Assembly (NCBI RefSeq): GCF_044324785.1
Contig: NZ_CP172127.1
Reading direction: 5' to 3' (one strand)
Origin: Escherichia coli
Lineage (GTDB): Bacteria; Pseudomonadota; Gammaproteobacteria; Enterobacterales; Enterobacteriaceae
DNA length: 64,000 bases
The translations under genes and the position numbers were made by a program. The notes below the pieces were generated by a model. It had not been told where the DNA came from. It saw only the letters and a program-made list of their open reading frames with translations, and made no database searches. Below are positions 39,200 to 58,492 of this stretch, piece after piece (the stretch's first letter is position 1; each line of letters begins with the position of its first letter).

Positions 39200-41462
39200 C
39201 CTGGATCTCCTTCGACAGTTCGACAAAGAAGGCGCTGTATCCGGCAACGCGCACCACCAGCCCGGCATAATCTTGTGGGCGCTGTTGCGCTTCCCGCAAC
39301 GTGTCGGCGTTCACCACGTTAAACTGAATGTGTTGTAACTTAAGCTGGGTAAATGCCCGTAAGAAGTCGGCCAGTTTGCGTAATCCCGCTTCACCTTCCA
39401 GGGTCGCCGGAGTGAATTTCACGTTCAGCAACGTACCGTTAGACAGCAGCGTATTATCGAGCTTACTGACTGACTTCAGTACCGCCGTTGGCCCTTGTGC
39501 GTCCTGACCCAGCATAGGTGACAAGCCGCCGTCTGCCAGTTGTTCCCCGGCAAAACGACCGTCTGGCGTCGCGCCAACCACCGATCCCAACGGGACGTGA
39601 GCAGAAACGGTATACGATCCCGGCGTGAAGTAGCCGCCGCGCGGGTTTTGGTATTTTTCCACTTCTTTGCAGTAGTGGCGTAACAGTTCGGCGCTAATGT
39701 TATCCACCTCGTCGATATCGTTACCGTATTTCTCGAAGCGGTTAATTAAGCGAGCGCGGACTTTTTCGCCTTCTGGCGTTGCGAAGTTGGCTTTTAATAC
39801 CGACAGCAATTCGTCAAAACTTAAACGCTGTTGATCAAAAACCATCCCTTTCAACGCATGGAGAGAATCGCTCAGGTTGGCGATACCAATTCCCTGTACG
39901 CCGGAGAAGTTATAACGCGCGCCGCCATCGGTAATATCGCGACCTTTTTCCAGACAATCGCTGATAAAAGACGAGAGCAGCGGTACAGGTGCCCAGTCGC
40001 GATGGCCGATATCACAAATATTGCTGCCCTCTACCATCAGGGTGATGTAGTGGCTGATCTTGGCGCGGATCTGCTCCAGTAAACCTTCATAAGTCAGCGC
40101 AGCATTGCCTTCATTTTCATGCAGGCAGATTTCCATCACTTTCAGCAGATTAAACATCGCGATGTCATGCAAGCCGTAGGTTCTGCCGGGAATAGATAAT
40201 TCCACACAGCCCACTACGGAATAGTCGCGCGCATCTTCCAGCGAAACGCCACGGTTGAGGAACGCTGGTACCACCACTTCATCGTTAAAGATTTGCGGAA
40301 TGCCGGTGCCGAGGCGAATGGTTTCTGCGGTTTTCATCAGGAACGGCGTGTCGATCAAGGCGTTAGTTCGCACACCGAGGTTCGGTTGCGGTAATTGCAC
40401 GCTTTGATAAGCGTCAAGGCAGAGGAACGAAAGCACGTTCACCGCGCTACGTCCGTTTTCGGTTAACCCGCCGAGCAGTGCGGTATAGCCGGTCGGGAAA
40501 CCTGCGAAATAACGCGCACTGCTGGTGGAGCGCAACAGCACGATGTCGTTGCATTTCACCCATAAAGATTCGAGCAGTTCTTTCAGGAACGCCGGATCTT
40601 CGCCCTGGGTTAATGATGCCTGATAGAACGGCAACATATACTGGTCGAAGCGCCCCAACGATAGCGAACTGGCGTTGGATTCGTATTGCAGAATGATGTT
40701 CATGTACCAGAATAACTGGCACGCCTGCCAGAACGTCTGCGGCTTATGTTCGGCGTTATGGCGAGAGATCTCCGCAATAGTCAGCAGTTCTTCGCGACGC
40801 TGGGCATCTGTGCAGTTTGCCGCCATCGTTTCCGCCAGTTCGGCGTAACGCAAAATGTGTTTCTGCGAGGCTTCGAGCAGTAACAGCGCTGCCTGATAAA
40901 AGTGATTCTCCGGCTGTTGCTGACAATGTTGCTGCATTTGCGCTACCAGCTCACCCAGCCCGTGATTCAGCAGGCGCGGGTAATCAATAATAATGTGCCC
41001 CTGGCCTTTATCCGTCTGGTTGATGCTGAAAATCTGCGTGCTGGTCGCGGCTTTTACTTCATCCGTCATCTGCCCGTTAATGAAATCTTTCATCGAACGT
41101 TTTTCCCAGTACGGGAACAACTCTTCGCGGTAGATACGTTTATCTTCTTCGCTGATAGCAAAGCGGTCCTGCGGACGCGTCGGGAATTGATCCAGCTCTT
41201 TCAGCAGCCAGTAAGGGTCCATTTCCGGCGACATAATCCCGGCGCGTGGTTTTACGGTGCGGTTACCGGCAATCAGTTCTTCATCACGAATCGAAATTTC
41301 AACATGTTCAAGGATATACGCTGTTGCTTTCGCCCGGCGCAATATCACCGGTTCGCCTTCGGTTTGCCGATGGCTGGCGGTATAAAGCAGCGCCCGCTCC
41401 AGCGAGATTTCACGGGTATTGGCAAACAGTGCAGTTTTGAGGCGAGAGATACGATTCGTCAT
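39165..41462 (-). CDS. pflD: glycyl-radical enzyme PflD (pyruvate formate-lyase 2 homologue)
   Basis: 765 aa; C-terminal glycyl radical motif ...VRVAGYSAFFVELS... Confidence 0.93.
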   Translation of the reverse strand: MTNRISRLKTALFANTREISLERALLYTASHRQTEGEPVILRRAKATAYILEHVEISIRDEELIAGNRTVKPRAGIMSPEMDPYWLLKELDQFPTRPQDRFAISEEDKRIYREELFPYWEKRSMKDFINGQMTDEVKAATSTQIFSINQTDKGQGHIIIDYPRLLNHGLGELVAQMQQHCQQQPENHFYQAALLLLEASQKHILRYAELAETMAANCTDAQRREELLTIAEISRHNAEHKPQTFWQACQLFWYMNIILQYESNASSLSLGRFDQYMLPFYQASLTQGEDPAFLKELLESLWVKCNDIVLLRSTSSARYFAGFPTGYTALLGGLTENGRSAVNVLSFLCLDAYQSVQLPQPNLGVRTNALIDTPFLMKTAETIRLGTGIPQIFNDEVVVPAFLNRGVSLEDARDYSVVGCVELSIPGRTYGLHDIAMFNLLKVMEICLHENEGNAALTYEGLLEQIRAKISHYITLMVEGSNICDIGHRDWAPVPLLSSFISDCLEKGRDITDGGARYNFSGVQGIGIANLSDSLHALKGMVFDQQRLSFDELLSVLKANFATPEGEKVRARLINRFEKYGNDIDEVDNISAELLRHYCKEVEKYQNPRGGYFTPGSYTVSAHVPLGSVVGATPDGRFAGEQLADGGLSPMLGQDAQGPTAVLKSVSKLDNTLLSNGTLLNVKFTPATLEGEAGLRKLADFLRAFTQLKLQHIQFNVVNADTLREAQQRPQDYAGLVVRVAGYSAFFVELSKEIQDDIIRRTAHQL

Positions 41463-52006: not shown

Positions 52007-52900
<894 letters not shown>

Positions 52901-52949
52901 TTACCTCATCAATCGCTTGTCGTTATATGTTGTGTTGTGCACATCTATC

Positions 52950-52980
52950 CGTTTAGACGTCCAGATGTAAAGATGAAGGA
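52950..52980. promoter_or_regulatory. MetJ operator (tandem met boxes) upstream of metF
   Basis: tagacgtc cagatgta aagatgaa: tandem 8-bp repeats resembling the met box AGACGTCT, about 55 bp upstream of the metF start. Confidence 0.65.
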
Positions 52981-53279
52981 AAAGCTAAAGGGCGTCAACC
53001 GAAAAATGACCAATGATAGTGAGGAAAAATCAGGGAAGATGAAAAAAACTCATCTTAATTAGAGGCGATAAGAGATTTCTCTATAGCGCAATCCATCTCG
53101 CACGTTTTGACTAATATTCTGACAACACAGCGACACCTGGGCTAATTCGAAAAACAACCTCCTGCCACCGGATGGTGATGCTAAGGCATCTGATTCGGCC
53201 TGCGCTCTCACGTAGGCCGAATAATGGATCTGCAAAATCAACTGGTAGCAAACAGATGAATCAACTTAATACATACTTT

Positions 53280-54833
53280 TTACTTGATATCCTTCACACG
53301 CATACCGTTGATCTGTTCATCCGTGATGGTATTGCCCGCTTTGAAGTAATCAACCACGGCGTGATAAACGTAATAACCGCCCGTTGTGTTACGCGCTCTC
53401 CCTTCGGTGAAGGCGCTAAAACCATCGCCACCATCAGCAAGGAAACTCTGAGTAGCAATGTGGTAAACCGTCGCATCTTCAATGGGTTTGCCATTCAGAG
53501 TCAGCGAGATAACCCGCTGACCAACCGGCTTACTGCTGTCGTACTTCATTTCCAGGCCTTTCGATACCTGTAAAACGCCATTACTTAAACTTGCGCCGTG
53601 TTCCATCAAACTGCGTAATTGTTTACCCGTGAGATCCATCGTCACCAGTTCGTTGGGGAACGGGAAGGTACTGATGACGCCGCCCATCGTAATCGCCCCT
53701 GCGGGGATCTCATTGCGAATACCGCCAGAGTTGGTTAAAGCCAATTGAGTGTTTTTACCCGCCGCTACCAGTAAAGCGTCCGCCGCCAGGTTCCCCAGGG
53801 ATGCCGATTCACCATAGGCACGTTTTAATTCAACCGGCGATTTCGCGACCGTTTGTTGCACCACTTCATCAAGCTTTTTATTCCAGCCGTCGATCACCTG
53901 TTTCGTTTGCGGATCGGGCTTCCACTCGTCGGCGTAAATGGTTTTAAGCTCGAAGTTTTTCACCGTAAAATCATGCGGCTTCTCTTTGTAGTCGAGAACC
54001 AGTTTGCCCACATCAATCCCGCCACTGTCAGTGGAAAGGATGAGCGTATTGCCGACTTTAATCGGTTCCGGCGTACCCACATGTGCATGTCCGGTGATCA
54101 AAATATCCAGCCCTTTCACCTGACTTGCCGTCTGAATATCTTTATCCAGTGCGCGACGCACATCAGTCCCTCCCATACTGGACTGGCGGGCCGGAACACC
54201 TTCGTGGATCAGGGCGACGGTCAAATCAACCTTGCCTTTGAGTTCATCGATATAACGTTGTAGCCATTTAATTTCATCACGCGCTTCAATACCCACTCGC
54301 GTGGCAGCAGATACTGTGTCATTAAAGGCAAATACACCGTGCAAACCTATAACGCCTATTTTCACACCGTCTTTTTCGATGATGGTATAGGGCTTATCCC
54401 AGAATGATTTACTGCTGTTCTGATAAAAAACATTGCCCTGCACAATCGGGAATTTTGCCTGACTCAACTGTAATAATGTGTTGTCCCAGCCGTGGTCAAA
54501 TTCATGGTTACCCATCGTGACAGCATCGAATGGCATGGTATTCATAATATCGATAATAGCCTTGCCTTTGGTCAGGCTGCTGATATATGGCCCGGTAAAA
54601 TAGTCGCCCGCATCAAAAAACCATGTCGCCTTATTTTTTGCTTTTTCTTGCTTAACCAGCGTAGTGATATTTGCCCAGCCGCCAATATCCCGTTTACCGT
54701 CCGCAATCCACGGCACTTTATAAGGCTCTACATGTGCATGGAGGTCGTTGGTATAAATAATGGTGACATCTTTAGCGCAAGCCCAGAATGGCAGTGTTAA
54801 TGCGATACCCGCAGCAAGTATTTTAATTTTCAT
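53280..54833 (-). CDS. secreted bifunctional metallophosphatase / 5'-nucleotidase family protein (UshA/CpdB-like)
   Basis: 517 aa; signal peptide [20 protein letters not shown]; calcineurin-like phosphoesterase motifs (TNDLHAH, GDYFTG, MGNHEFD, GHAH) plus a C-terminal 5'-nucleotidase substrate-binding domain. Confidence 0.85.
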
Positions 54834-54892
54834 AAACAGTCCCTTTCAGTGAGATAAAGGATTGCTACATTACGTTCTGAAAGAGTTATTTA

Positions 54893-54908
54893 TGTGAGAG
54901 TAATCACA
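54893..54908. promoter_or_regulatory. perfect consensus CRP (cAMP receptor protein) binding site in divergent promoter region
   Basis: TGTGAgagtaaTCACA: both consensus half-sites with 6-bp spacer, roughly 60 bp from each of the two divergent start codons. Confidence 0.7.
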
Positions 54909-54965
54909 TCCACAGGGGAGCGTTGCCGGACAAAATCAACGACCATGTGAAATCGTTGGTGATAT

Positions 54966-56096
54966 ATGTCGACTCTGTTTACGATTAATGCCTGCAAGTC
55001 GTTTGGTTGCCGTAATTTAGGGCAGCCAACATCGACAGATTATAGCTGGCCCGACTATCGACTGGGTTATCCGGCACTGCACTGTCGGGCATGTGGCAGT
55101 TACCCGCCGTTGTTTGACGAGCAACAATTTCGTGACTGGTTGACAGTTCACTTATCTACTTTTGCAACAGAGAAAGGCCATTTTTGCCCGGTATGTTATG
55201 GTACAGATACGATTTGTTATGGTCACAATCCACAGGGTTCGCAACGCATTCAATGCCGTAACTGCAAAAAAGTATGGACACCCAAACAATATCAGAAAGA
55301 AATAACGACTCCCGAAATAATCGAAACGGTTGCTTTTCTCGTGCCATTTCAGGGAGTCAGCAGCGGGCAGAAACTGTATGTTTTAATCAGTTTTGATGCT
55401 CTTCGCGGTAATATTCTTCATCTTTCTACTAATTACACGCAGCATCAGGCTGGAGAAAGTCTGCATTATCGATACAGAGGGAATGCAGAACCAGAGTTAC
55501 ACGAGAGTAATATTGTACAACGCGTTGATATGCGGGAAGCACAATTTCTACGCCGCAGTCAGTTTGATGAAATTCAGTATGGCAGCGCAGCGCTCAAACG
55601 CAATGCTAAAGGTGTTATTCTGCGTCCGGTTATCACTGCACACGGGCATTTCAGAGTACTGAATATTTTATTCCCTACAGTAAAAACACATGTAATTTCA
55701 CACGAGTGTTTTTTAAGAGGTGCCATTATTACGGCATGGGCTGATCTGTTTCGCCAACAGCAAGGTGAGATTTGGTTTATTGAAGAGGAAATAGCTGACG
55801 ATACCGATAATATGCCCTGGAGTTTTCAGGGAACAACTTATCACGGCTGGTGGAAAAATCAGTGGCAACTTTGGGGTCAGGGCAAAAATCGTAAAATGGT
55901 ATGTGCATTAACGGGCGGAAAGAGTAGCAAAGCAGAAATGCTCTCTTTAGCAACCAGCAGACATTTTATCGACTGGCTACATAAACAAGCAGTATTTACT
56001 CACAGCACCCCGCTTTCCGCAGGGCGCGTTACGCAAATACTGCTTTCTCTGGCTCAGGATTACAACAACTGCGCCAGGCGGTTAATATCCGACTGA
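54966..56096 (+). CDS. hypothetical Cys-rich protein (N-terminal paired C-x4-C / C-x2-C zinc-ribbon-like motifs)
   Basis: 376 aa ORF; N-terminus contains C..x4..C, C..x2..C, C..x2..C, C..x2..C pairs (ACKSFGC, CRAC, CPVC, CRNC); no signal peptide; 3' end overlaps convergent metL stop by 37 bp; function not recognisable. Confidence 0.6.
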   Translation: MSTLFTINACKSFGCRNLGQPTSTDYSWPDYRLGYPALHCRACGSYPPLFDEQQFRDWLTVHLSTFATEKGHFCPVCYGTDTICYGHNPQGSQRIQCRNCKKVWTPKQYQKEITTPEIIETVAFLVPFQGVSSGQKLYVLISFDALRGNILHLSTNYTQHQAGESLHYRYRGNAEPELHESNIVQRVDMREAQFLRRSQFDEIQYGSAALKRNAKGVILRPVITAHGHFRVLNILFPTVKTHVISHECFLRGAIITAWADLFRQQQGEIWFIEEEIADDTDNMPWSFQGTTYHGWWKNQWQLWGQGKNRKMVCALTGGKSSKAEMLSLATSRHFIDWLHKQAVFTHSTPLSAGRVTQILLSLAQDYNNCARRLISD

Positions 56097-58492
56097 ATCG
56101 CCCCTGCGGTGACGTCGCGCCCCGCGCCAGGCCCACGGATCACCAGAGGGTTATCGCGATACCAGCGGCTTTCGATGGCAAAGACGTTATCGCACGGCAG
56201 CAGTGATGCCAGCGGATGGTCTTCACGCACCGCTTCCACGCCCACACGCGCTTTGCCATTGGCATCGAAACGCGCCACGTAGCGCAGCACCAGCCCCATT
56301 TCGCGGGCCGCTTCCAGCCGTTGCAACATCTGCTCGTTGAGTTCATCGCCGTTTTCAAAGAAATGGTCGATGCTACCGCCTTCGCAATGGGCAGGCACCA
56401 GCGATTCCACGCGCACCTGATCTGGTTCGATGTCGTAACCCGCTTCACGCGCCAGAATCACCAGCTTGCGCATCACGTCTTTGCCGGAAAGGTCATCACG
56501 CGGGTCAGGCTCGGTTAAGCCCTGCTGCCACGCCTGATCCACCAGTTCGGTAAACGGCACGCTACCGTCGAATTGCAGGAACAGCCAGGAGAGCGTGCCG
56601 GAGAAGATCCCGCTGATCGACAAAATAGTATCGCCGCTGTCGATCAGATCGCGCACGGTATGGTTGATCGGCAATCCCGCACCGACGGTGGCGTTGTACA
56701 GCCAGTGACGCCCGGTTTTTTCGAAGGCGTCGTGGATCTGGCGATATTTATTGCTGTCGCTCGCTCCTGCCAGTTTGTTGGCACTGATGACGTGGAAACC
56801 GTGGCTGGCGAAATCAAGATACTGGTCAGCGAGCTGCTGGCTGGCGGTAACGTCCAGCACCACTAAATCATCATACGGATGGGCGCGCATCCACAGGAAC
56901 AGCGACTCTTCATCCTGCTCGACCGCTTCATCGTTGAAGAAGGCTAGCGCGCGGCTGGCATCCAGCCCGCCATAACTCAACAGGCTGCGGCGGCTGTCCA
57001 CCACGCCTGCCAGCACAAATTCAAAGCCGGTACGTGCCGAAAGCGTGCTCTGCTCACGGGCGAACAGTTCCAGCCAGCGGGAACCGATATTGCCCTTGCC
57101 GAACAATACCAGGCCGATGCGTTTTTCTGCGCGGAAGACGGACTGATGCAGCCCCTGAATCAGGCTTTCGGTTGGTCCGGTGCGCAGTACTGCCACCAGG
57201 CTGATGCCGTCATCGGACTGCCAGGTAAATTCGACCGGCTGGCCTTTCAGTTGCTGCCAGAAGCGGTGGCAATGCAGCGGGTTACGGGTGACGCCTGCAC
57301 CGACCATCGCCACCAGCGCCAGCCCCTGACGCAGGCGCAGTTCGCCAGGTAATCCCGCTTCGTCGAGGATTTTCAGCGCACTGTCAGCGACTTCTGAGGT
57401 GTAGCAAAATTGCAGCAACTGGCGATCGTTATGCACGCCAACCGCCAGTGGACGCACCTGGGCACGTTTCAGGATCTGGTCGATCTCTTTATGTGCCAGT
57501 TTGAAATCCTGACTGGCGGGCACCTGAAACTCAATCAAACAGACATCATCGTGGCTGGTGACAATACGCGCACCAGTACCAGAGGCCAGCACGCGTTCAA
57601 TGCGCGTGGAGCCTTGATCCGGCGTGTAGCTACAGCGCAGTTGCAGGTCGATTTCGCTACCGGATACCGGCTGTAAAGTACGGGCGTGAAGAACGGGAGC
57701 CGCCAGACGCGCCAGTTCGCTGGCCTCATCCAGACGCAGCAACGGCAGCAGGCAGGCATCTTTCACTTTACGCGGGTCGGCACTGTATACCCCGGCGACG
57801 TCGCTCCAGATGGTTACACGAGAAACACCCGCCAGCGCACCGATTTGTGTCGCGGAATAGTCGGAACCGTTACGCCCCAGCAGCACCGTTTCACCGGCGT
57901 TGTTACGGCTGATAAACCCGGTCACCACCAGACGTTTGCCCGGATGTTGTACCAGTAGCTGTTGCAGCAACGGGTAAGAAAGTCCTTCATCAACCTGCGG
58001 TTGCGCAGCGCGTTCAGCGCGTAAAAACTCGCGGGCATCAAGCCAGGCCGCTGGCAGCCCTTGTTGATTAAGTACCGCAGACATCAGGCGTGCCGACCAT
58101 ACTTCCCCGTGGCCCACCACTTCCGCATACACCGCATCGTTAATACCACTGTCGAGCAACGCCGCCAGGCGCTCAAGATCGCTGACAAAAGCGCTAATGA
58201 GGCTATCGGCTTCTTCGGCGGGTAACAGGCCGCTAATCAGATCGCACTGATAGCGACGCAGCGTTTGTTGAACCTGATGCGCAGAGAGACGATCGGTCTG
58301 GCTTAGTTTCAACCAGTTAATCAACTGGTTAGTGGTGCTACCGGCGGCGGAAACCACCATCATATCGTCAGGCAGAGAGTACTCCGCCATAATGCCCGCG
58401 ACACGCAAATAACACTTCACATCAGCCAGACTACTGCCACCAAATTTATGCAGTTGACGACCTTTCGCCCCTGCCTGCGCAATCACACTCAT
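56060..58492 (-). CDS. metL: bifunctional aspartokinase II / homoserine dehydrogenase II MetL
   Basis: 810 aa; MSVIAQAGAKGRQLHKFGGSSLADVKCYLRVAGIMAEYS... Confidence 0.95.
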   Translation of the reverse strand: MSVIAQAGAKGRQLHKFGGSSLADVKCYLRVAGIMAEYSLPDDMMVVSAAGSTTNQLINWLKLSQTDRLSAHQVQQTLRRYQCDLISGLLPAEEADSLISAFVSDLERLAALLDSGINDAVYAEVVGHGEVWSARLMSAVLNQQGLPAAWLDAREFLRAERAAQPQVDEGLSYPLLQQLLVQHPGKRLVVTGFISRNNAGETVLLGRNGSDYSATQIGALAGVSRVTIWSDVAGVYSADPRKVKDACLLPLLRLDEASELARLAAPVLHARTLQPVSGSEIDLQLRCSYTPDQGSTRIERVLASGTGARIVTSHDDVCLIEFQVPASQDFKLAHKEIDQILKRAQVRPLAVGVHNDRQLLQFCYTSEVADSALKILDEAGLPGELRLRQGLALVAMVGAGVTRNPLHCHRFWQQLKGQPVEFTWQSDDGISLVAVLRTGPTESLIQGLHQSVFRAEKRIGLVLFGKGNIGSRWLELFAREQSTLSARTGFEFVLAGVVDSRRSLLSYGGLDASRALAFFNDEAVEQDEESLFLWMRAHPYDDLVVLDVTASQQLADQYLDFASHGFHVISANKLAGASDSNKYRQIHDAFEKTGRHWLYNATVGAGLPINHTVRDLIDSGDTILSISGIFSGTLSWLFLQFDGSVPFTELVDQAWQQGLTEPDPRDDLSGKDVMRKLVILAREAGYDIEPDQVRVESLVPAHCEGGSIDHFFENGDELNEQMLQRLEAAREMGLVLRYVARFDANGKARVGVEAVREDHPLASLLPCDNVFAIESRWYRDNPLVIRGPGAGRDVTAGAIQSDINRLAQLL

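Follow-up and report, generated by a model that had tools for sequence, protein, structure and literature searches.

A transposase-derived gene of Escherichia coli as a candidate local regulator of a putatively CRP-linked nucleotidase unit

The InsA protein of IS1 is a DNA-binding zinc (Zn)-ribbon repressor of its own promoter. The exaptation of transposases as regulators is well documented in eukaryotes, where FHY3/FAR1 and the PGBD-type genes are domesticated transposase derivatives; in bacteria, to our knowledge, it has been shown only recently, for the TnpB-derived TldR repressors, and we know of no earlier bacterial transcription-factor family derived from a DDE (Asp-Asp-Glu) transposase. 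The genes for nucleoside catabolism in E. coli (deo, tsx, nupC, nupG, cdd, and udp) are controlled by CytR/DeoR and CRP. In this study, we analyzed a 376-amino-acid (aa) protein, hereafter the target, encoded at positions 54966–56096 (+) of a 64,000-nucleotide stretch of Escherichia coli DNA (NZ_CP172127.1), which as a whole is called the window. We put at about 0.5 the probability that the target is a domesticated IS1-type transposase derivative acting as a local DNA-binding regulator of a CRP-dependent nucleotidase unit; if this is true, its family would be the first of its kind. Taken by themselves, IS1-like ancestry and the loss of mobility are very probable.

The target is best called a transposase-derived host gene, being neither a transposase nor a wholly unclassifiable protein. 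It shares with InsAB'/InsA of IS1 (NF033558; PF03811) a homologous second Zn ribbon, and its long relatives have the same order of Zn ribbon, helix-turn-helix (HTH), and RNase-H-like core as InsAB'. Unlike IS1, the target has an additional N-terminal Zn ribbon and no HTH, a core of roughly double the length that contains a beta-rich insertion and does not resemble InsB in sequence, no DDE residues, and a single open reading frame (ORF) without a frameshift, and it is a single-copy, syntenic gene without terminal repeats. The ORF runs from ATG to stop at exactly the positions reported by a sequence-only reading of this DNA, and it is real: the homologues, the ratio of nonsynonymous to synonymous substitution rates (dN/dS), and a confident structural model dispose of the idea of a chance frame. 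RefSeq labels the protein as 'cytoplasmic protein' or 'hypothetical protein', and its relatives as 'cytoplasmic protein', 'IS1 family transposase', or even 'lactate dehydrogenase'.

Zinc ribbons joined to a transposase-type core

The four N-terminal cysteine pairs seen in the sequence-only reading have the spacings that it described (C10-x4-C15, C40-x2-C43, C74-x2-C77, and C97-x2-C100), and its suggestion of two Zn ribbons was correct. In an alignment of 64 family sequences extending down to ~20% identity, seven of the eight cysteines (C10, C15, C40, C43, C77, C97, and C100) are at least 90% conserved, with a lower value for C74. Zn ribbon 1 (C10-x4-C15 to C40-x2-C43; 54993–55094, +), in which all four cysteines belong to this conserved set, contains short beta strands in the structural model. 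Zn ribbon 2 (C74-x2-C77 to C97-x2-C100; 55185–55265, +) is of the InsA/IS1 type, and sequence comparisons indicate that it is homologous to the IS1 InsA ribbon. BLASTP aligned it to InsA at 41% identity over 32 aa (aa 74–104; E 1e-5), and hhalign of the family profile against InsAB' gave a probability of 96.4% over the InsA Zn ribbon and HTH. The NCBIfam model IS1_IS1595_Zn matched aa 74–105 with an E value of 1.8e-4, which is below its cutoff, and the sole PHROGs match was that of the Zn ribbon to a 'transposase' phrog. Pfam-A returned no significant family for the target and a weak match at the Zn-ribbon residues; among 46 relatives, the Pfam matches were weak or partial over the Zn ribbon and left the core uncovered, the InsA ribbon being significant in seven of them.

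The HTH module of InsA has no counterpart in the target. The hhalign alignment leaves a gap over InsA residues ~45–87, and the model contains no helix between aa 100 and the first core strand at aa 118; at the HTH location, three helices are present in the model of a 460-aa relative. The enterobacterial clade has lost the HTH module that the longer relatives keep. The IS1 transposase model NF033558 scored 19.5 bits on the target, against a cutoff of 100 bits, and was matched over profile positions 1–47 only. The long relatives matched positions 1–81 of 199 in the NCBIfam IS1 transposase model, and one of them positions 1–140, with scores of 19–38 bits, far below the cutoff.

The AlphaFold2 model of the target (mean predicted local distance difference test score (pLDDT) 93.9; predicted template modeling score 0.93) contains an RNase-H-like core of the transposase/integrase type at aa ~116–367 (55311–56066, +), which is the fold of the DDE transposase/integrase superfamily. 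The two catalytic aspartates are missing. The statement in the sequence-only reading that no DDE signature was visible is borne out, since none of the alignment columns among the 64 family sequences is a conserved Asp, and E247 is the sole uniformly acidic (100%) position. The beta1 positions 121/123 are Thr/Ser, and P221 (97%) follows beta4; going by fold topology and alignment rather than superposition, these residues and E247 would occupy the D, D, and E positions. The conserved residues of the core are R197, H228, H246, E247, R251, W296, W300, and N367.

No similarity of the core to IS1 InsB was detected by BLASTP or by hhalign with the core alone, and greedy hhalign of a sulfatase-linked subfamily against InsAB' extended into beta1–beta3 at low confidence. 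A core-only profile search of 5.8 billion proteins retrieved just 285, and the best 120 of these, all family members, included no bridge to a live IS family. In a tblastn search of plasmids with IS1, the matches listed were all >93% identical. Foldseek with the target model returned nothing at E<=1e-3, sequence searches of the PDB gave generic C2H2-type zinc-finger noise only, PADLOC found no defence-system match, and Rfam found nothing within 52700–56300. No Pfam or NCBIfam model covering the family core was found, nor any literature on the family, and the proposal of an undescribed function made from the letters alone has held up in this respect. That proposal had been set against a confident match to a known transposase family; such a match exists for the N-terminal module and at the level of the fold, and fails for the catalytic and mobility features. 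Among the properties by which IS1-family members are recognized, the target has the InsA-type Zn ribbon and lacks the HTH, the DDE residues, a sufficient model score, terminal repeats, and multiple copies at variable sites.

Conservation and immobility at the metF–metL locus

The first search with the 376-aa protein retrieved 253 homologues at E<=1e-3, which formed 119 clusters at 50% identity. Purifying selection acts on the gene: comparisons with its orthologues give dN/dS values of 0.09–0.21, up to the point of synonymous saturation. Dozens of species carry an intact ORF, and ~115 positions are invariant among genera. In the enterobacterial proteins, these comprise 50 of the 107 positions in the Zn-ribbon region versus 65 of the 269 elsewhere, making the Zn-ribbon region the most conserved part.

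The gene order in the window, which is Escherichia DNA, is katG-metF, a segment of lower GC content that carries both the target and a divergent nucleotidase gene, and metL-metB-metJ. By BLASTN against MG1655 and by GC content, the segment spans 53048–56058 (3011 bp; GC 0.42–0.50 versus 0.56–0.62 in the flanks), and at its site K-12 (MG1655) has a 197-bp unrelated spacer containing a repetitive extragenic palindromic (REP) element. Of 5426 complete E. coli genomes, 1837 carry the segment, and the median number of places matched in an E. coli genome by a 3.3-kb query comprising the segment with its metL and metF flanks was one. The pair of genes lies between metF and metL in Escherichia, Pseudocitrobacter, several Citrobacter species, Kosakonia, Phytobacter, Klebsiella, Superficieibacter, Kluyvera, and Salmonella arizonae. 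This shared position across many genera indicates that the locus is ancestral, vertically inherited, and lost in K-12.

Inverted repeats flanking the target gene or the 3-kb segment were not found, in agreement with the sequence-only reading, which had seen none nearby. Second copies in some genomes are paralogues of 65–75% identity, each with its own nucleotidase gene, and at this level of divergence they are not products of recent transposition. The target is no longer mobile and is a single-copy chromosomal gene at metF–metL.

Several further observations concern the segment and its second copies. With the 3.3-kb query, the top E. coli match reached just 97.7% identity, in spite of ~99% protein identity for the flanking genes. 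A REP-like hairpin with 12-nt arms (ATTCGGCCTGCG / CGTAGGCCGAAT) occupies 53193–53222, close to the left end of the segment and downstream of the nucleotidase gene. A second paralogous module occupies another chromosomal site in E. coli SCPM-O-B-8794 (L018, 1–7131) and in four further loci. It adjoins kdsA-prfA-hemA in L018, carries the same CRP box and palindrome as the window (described below), and includes a copy of the target with 69% identity, upstream of which lie a Tsx-like porin gene and as many as three nucleotidase genes in tandem.

The C-terminal tail (aa 368–376) and the stop codon (56067–56096, +) are lineage-specific and differ between genera after a conserved YN motif. The tail is restricted to Escherichia-type copies (Escherichia and Pseudocitrobacter vendiensis), and the last block has low pLDDT. 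On the opposite strand, the 3' end of metL (56060–58492, −) extends over the final 37 nt of the ORF. An imperfect hairpin with 27-nt arms at 55987–56045, within the 3' end of the target ORF and directly downstream of the metL stop (−), may be a metL terminator embedded in the ORF; it was not called by the terminator scan.

Nucleotidase pairing, spacer motifs, and catabolic neighbors

The divergent partner of the target (53280–54833, −) encodes a 517-aa UshA-like metallophosphatase/5'-nucleotidase with a signal-peptide-like N-terminus. Its NCBIfam matches to UshA/NadN/CpdB-type models range from 1e-44 to 1e-55, all below the equivalog cutoffs, and we regard it as an uncharacterised third periplasmic 5'-nucleotidase paralogue of the UshA/CpdB type, absent from K-12. 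Distribution and neighborhood, named as a check in the sequence-only reading, proved to be conserved: alongside the metF–metL site in many genera, the nucleotidase gene is divergent from the target in all 34 enterobacterial loci whose flanking sequence was long enough. The two genes are ~133–145 bp apart, except in the most divergent clade (37% identity), where the distance is ~210 bp. The nucleotidase is the more conserved of the pair (74–98% identity and dN/dS 0.02–0.05, versus 37–95% identity for the target; 87–98% across Enterobacteriaceae outside one divergent clade), and the target evolves ~3 times faster. In S. arizonae and Kluyvera genomosp. 3 the target is truncated or frameshifted, and one Escherichia paralogue has decayed; where this has happened, the adjacent nucleotidase stays ~90% identical to that of the window. 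Its persistence without the target accords better with a dispensable regulator than with an obligate partner.

The two start codons are separated by 132 bp (54834–54965). A perfect consensus CRP box (TGTGA-N6-TCACA) lies at 54893–54908, ~65–67 bp from both start codons; it is the sole perfect match in the 64-kb window, where 0.02 would be expected, and it is kept in all aligned enterobacterial spacers. It would lie near −41.5 for both promoters, at the positions that we infer for them. A conserved palindrome, CAACGA-N10-TCGTTG (54937–54958), abuts the ribosome-binding site of the target. It occurs with <=1 mismatch at a fixed position in 29 of 35 enterobacterial loci and is more degenerate in the rest; the arms are conserved and the 10-nt spacer only partly so. 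The palindrome is, from its sequence, a candidate operator. Its interpretation as an RNA hairpin or terminator was rejected, because it shows a folding z of +0.66 versus shuffled sequences, no covariation, and no upstream gene on the minus strand. A one-mismatch copy of the motif at 40656–40677 is probably due to chance (0.15 expected per window at <=1 mismatch). The spacer alignment also contains a conserved block, TTACGTTCTGAAAG (54870–54883), between the CRP box and the nucleotidase start, which would overlap the probable −10 region of the nucleotidase promoter. A sigma-70 scan match on the minus strand was disregarded, as it falls inside the nucleotidase ORF.

The distant relatives, with 20–30% identity to the target, are found beside other catabolic genes. 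Two Enterovibrio relatives have a 5'-nucleotidase gene immediately upstream. The Motilimonas relative faces a divergent operon of deoD-like, transaldolase, phosphopentomutase (deoB), and nupC genes, with tsx and adenosine deaminase (add) also present; two Aliagarivorans relatives have talB-nupC-deoC-deoA and tsx nearby; a relative on a metagenomic contig has deoB-deoD-nupG-like neighbors; and the Thaumasiovibrio relative adjoins deoD. A relative in Salmonella Give has porin, class-B acid phosphatase, and class-II phosphodiesterase genes as neighbors. A subfamily of 400–420 aa, represented by five loci (including L044, 5968–7236), consistently adjoins sulfatase and radical S-adenosylmethionine (anaerobic sulfatase maturase-like) genes and not nucleotide genes. 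The family thus shows a conserved position beside a candidate target operon, and its paralogues accompany different catabolic operons; the latter pattern is a signature of local transcription factors and fits poorly with a mobile element or a pathway-specific enzyme. As a separate observation, a 56-aa ORF without a Pfam hit lies beside the deoD-like (PNP_UDP_1) gene in Motilimonas (L008, 5624–5794) and Thaumasiovibrio (L052, 5026–5196).

The proposed role, rival explanations, and known systems

Based on these data, we propose that an IS1-type transposase was domesticated by its host, with the loss of the two catalytic aspartates and, in the enterobacterial clade, of the HTH. The single CRP site centred between the genes may drive both divergent promoters under carbon limitation. 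The target, via its Zn ribbons, would recognize CAACGA-N10-TCGTTG at its own promoter or 5' end and would thereby modulate its own expression and that of the nucleotidase, autoregulation being probable. The dead transposase core could serve as an oligomerisation domain, an effector-sensing domain, or both. DNA binding, the operator, the CRP role, the promoter positions, and any effector are suggested in this proposal by gene context. A broader hypothesis, to which we give somewhat less than an even chance, is that this gamma-proteobacterial family of IS1-type origin has been exapted as transcription factors whose dead core senses a small molecule or metal and which control the scavenging of extracellular nucleotides, nucleosides, and sulfated compounds, with the window gene acting as the CRP-coupled regulator of a periplasmic 5'-nucleotidase.

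Several points weigh against a regulatory role. The target is without the HTH found in IS1 InsA and in the long relatives, and any DNA-binding capacity would therefore have to reside in the Zn ribbons alone. At 16 bp from centre to centre, the half-sites of the palindrome are oddly spaced for a simple dimer, and the palindrome could instead be a promoter or untranslated-region element. The mapping of the catalytic positions comes from secondary-structure topology and alignment, not three-dimensional superposition, and the invariant His/His/Glu/Arg residues, which lie close to the former active site, could be a retained non-canonical catalytic or metal site, not a sensor. As the core has no detectable similarity to InsB, its IS1 ancestry follows from domain order and fold. 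In addition, no literature on the family supporting DNA binding or regulation was found.

The invariant His/His/Glu/Arg residues would be central if the target were an enzyme, namely a cytoplasmic nuclease or phosphoesterase with a remodelled core site (H228, H246, E247, R197, and R251) that acts on nucleic acids or nucleotides and is coupled to nucleotide/nucleoside salvage. The best-conserved core residues do lie directly after beta4 and beta5, where the active sites of RNase-H folds are located, a His-His-Glu set is typical of metal sites, and nucleotide or nucleoside catabolic genes neighbor most relatives. We nevertheless consider an enzyme unlikely, because an entire subfamily adjoins a sulfatase and its maturase instead of nucleotide genes, the target is cytoplasmic while its partner nucleotidase is apparently exported, conservation is higher in the N-terminal Zn ribbons than in the core, some lineages keep the nucleotidase and lose the target, and the two canonical aspartates are absent. 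The export of many neighboring metallo-hydrolases (nucleotidases, acid phosphatase, phosphodiesterase, and sulfatases) would suit a different accessory role in their assembly, metallation, or quality control, and an RNA-binding post-transcriptional regulator could be imagined from the ability of Zn ribbons to bind RNA and from the palindrome at the 5' end of the target. Such roles appear quite improbable, however: the products of the deo-type neighbors are cytoplasmic enzymes and transporters, the nucleotidase is retained where the target has been lost, and the 5' hairpin is no more stable than shuffled sequences and lacks covariation.

If the target were still a working transposase or recombinase of a non-canonical type and moved the nucleotidase cassette, this would explain why the segment occurs in only a third of E. 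coli and why paralogous pairs exist elsewhere. This reading would accord with the lower GC content and presence/absence polymorphism of the segment, the second pair at a different locus in some strains, and the IS1-like domain order. Even so, it is very improbable given that the segment ends have no terminal inverted repeats, the catalytic aspartates are missing family-wide, the constant metF–metL position across genera points to vertical inheritance with loss in K-12, the paralogues are 65–75% identical and not recent copies, and the ORF crosses the right boundary of the segment into metL. The least probable account is that of a slowly decaying transposase relic, now without function. Its ~3-fold faster evolution than that of its neighbor, its truncated or frameshifted copies, the lost HTH, and the replaced tail could be read in this way, yet dN/dS stays at 0.09–0.21 out to synonymous saturation, and the gene is intact in dozens of species, with ~115 invariant positions and a confident fold prediction.

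If the domesticated-regulator reading is correct, it would define a new protein family whose core is uncovered by Pfam and NCBIfam, and it would correct the misleading labels 'IS1 family transposase' and 'cytoplasmic protein' in Vibrio, Photobacterium, Salmonella, Klebsiella, Citrobacter, and E. coli. It would also point to an unstudied CRP-linked periplasmic 5'-nucleotidase module, which many clinical Enterobacteriaceae and approximately one-third of complete E. coli genomes carry. A transposase relic would be an unusual origin for a bacterial regulator.

Concerning the known systems, the target shares only 4–14% sequence identity with DDE transposases and retroviral integrases (ISCth4/IS256-Mutator 6xg8, TnsB, MuA, Tn5, Mos1, and HIV/PFV integrase) and, unlike them, belongs to a family in which the acidic metal-binding triad is not conserved. 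The CytR/DeoR-CRP system resembles the present one in the kind of genes beside the relatives (deo, nupC, tsx, and nucleotidases) and in the CRP box of the promoter region; the target differs from CytR and DeoR in having no LacI- or DeoR-type domain and an entirely different fold and origin, and CytR-like octamer repeats are not evident. The role proposed for the target parallels that of IS1 InsA. In comparison with FHY3/FAR1, PGBD, and TldR, the family is of IS1-like DDE type, has a gamma-proteobacterial host, and uses no guide RNA, and its regulatory role is a proposed one. The concept is nonetheless the same, in that catalysis was lost, the gene was fixed in the host under purifying selection, and the scaffold would have been reused for DNA recognition and gene control; an IS1-type DDE transposase as the stable chromosomal partner of catabolic operons would, if true, extend this theme of exaptation in bacteria.
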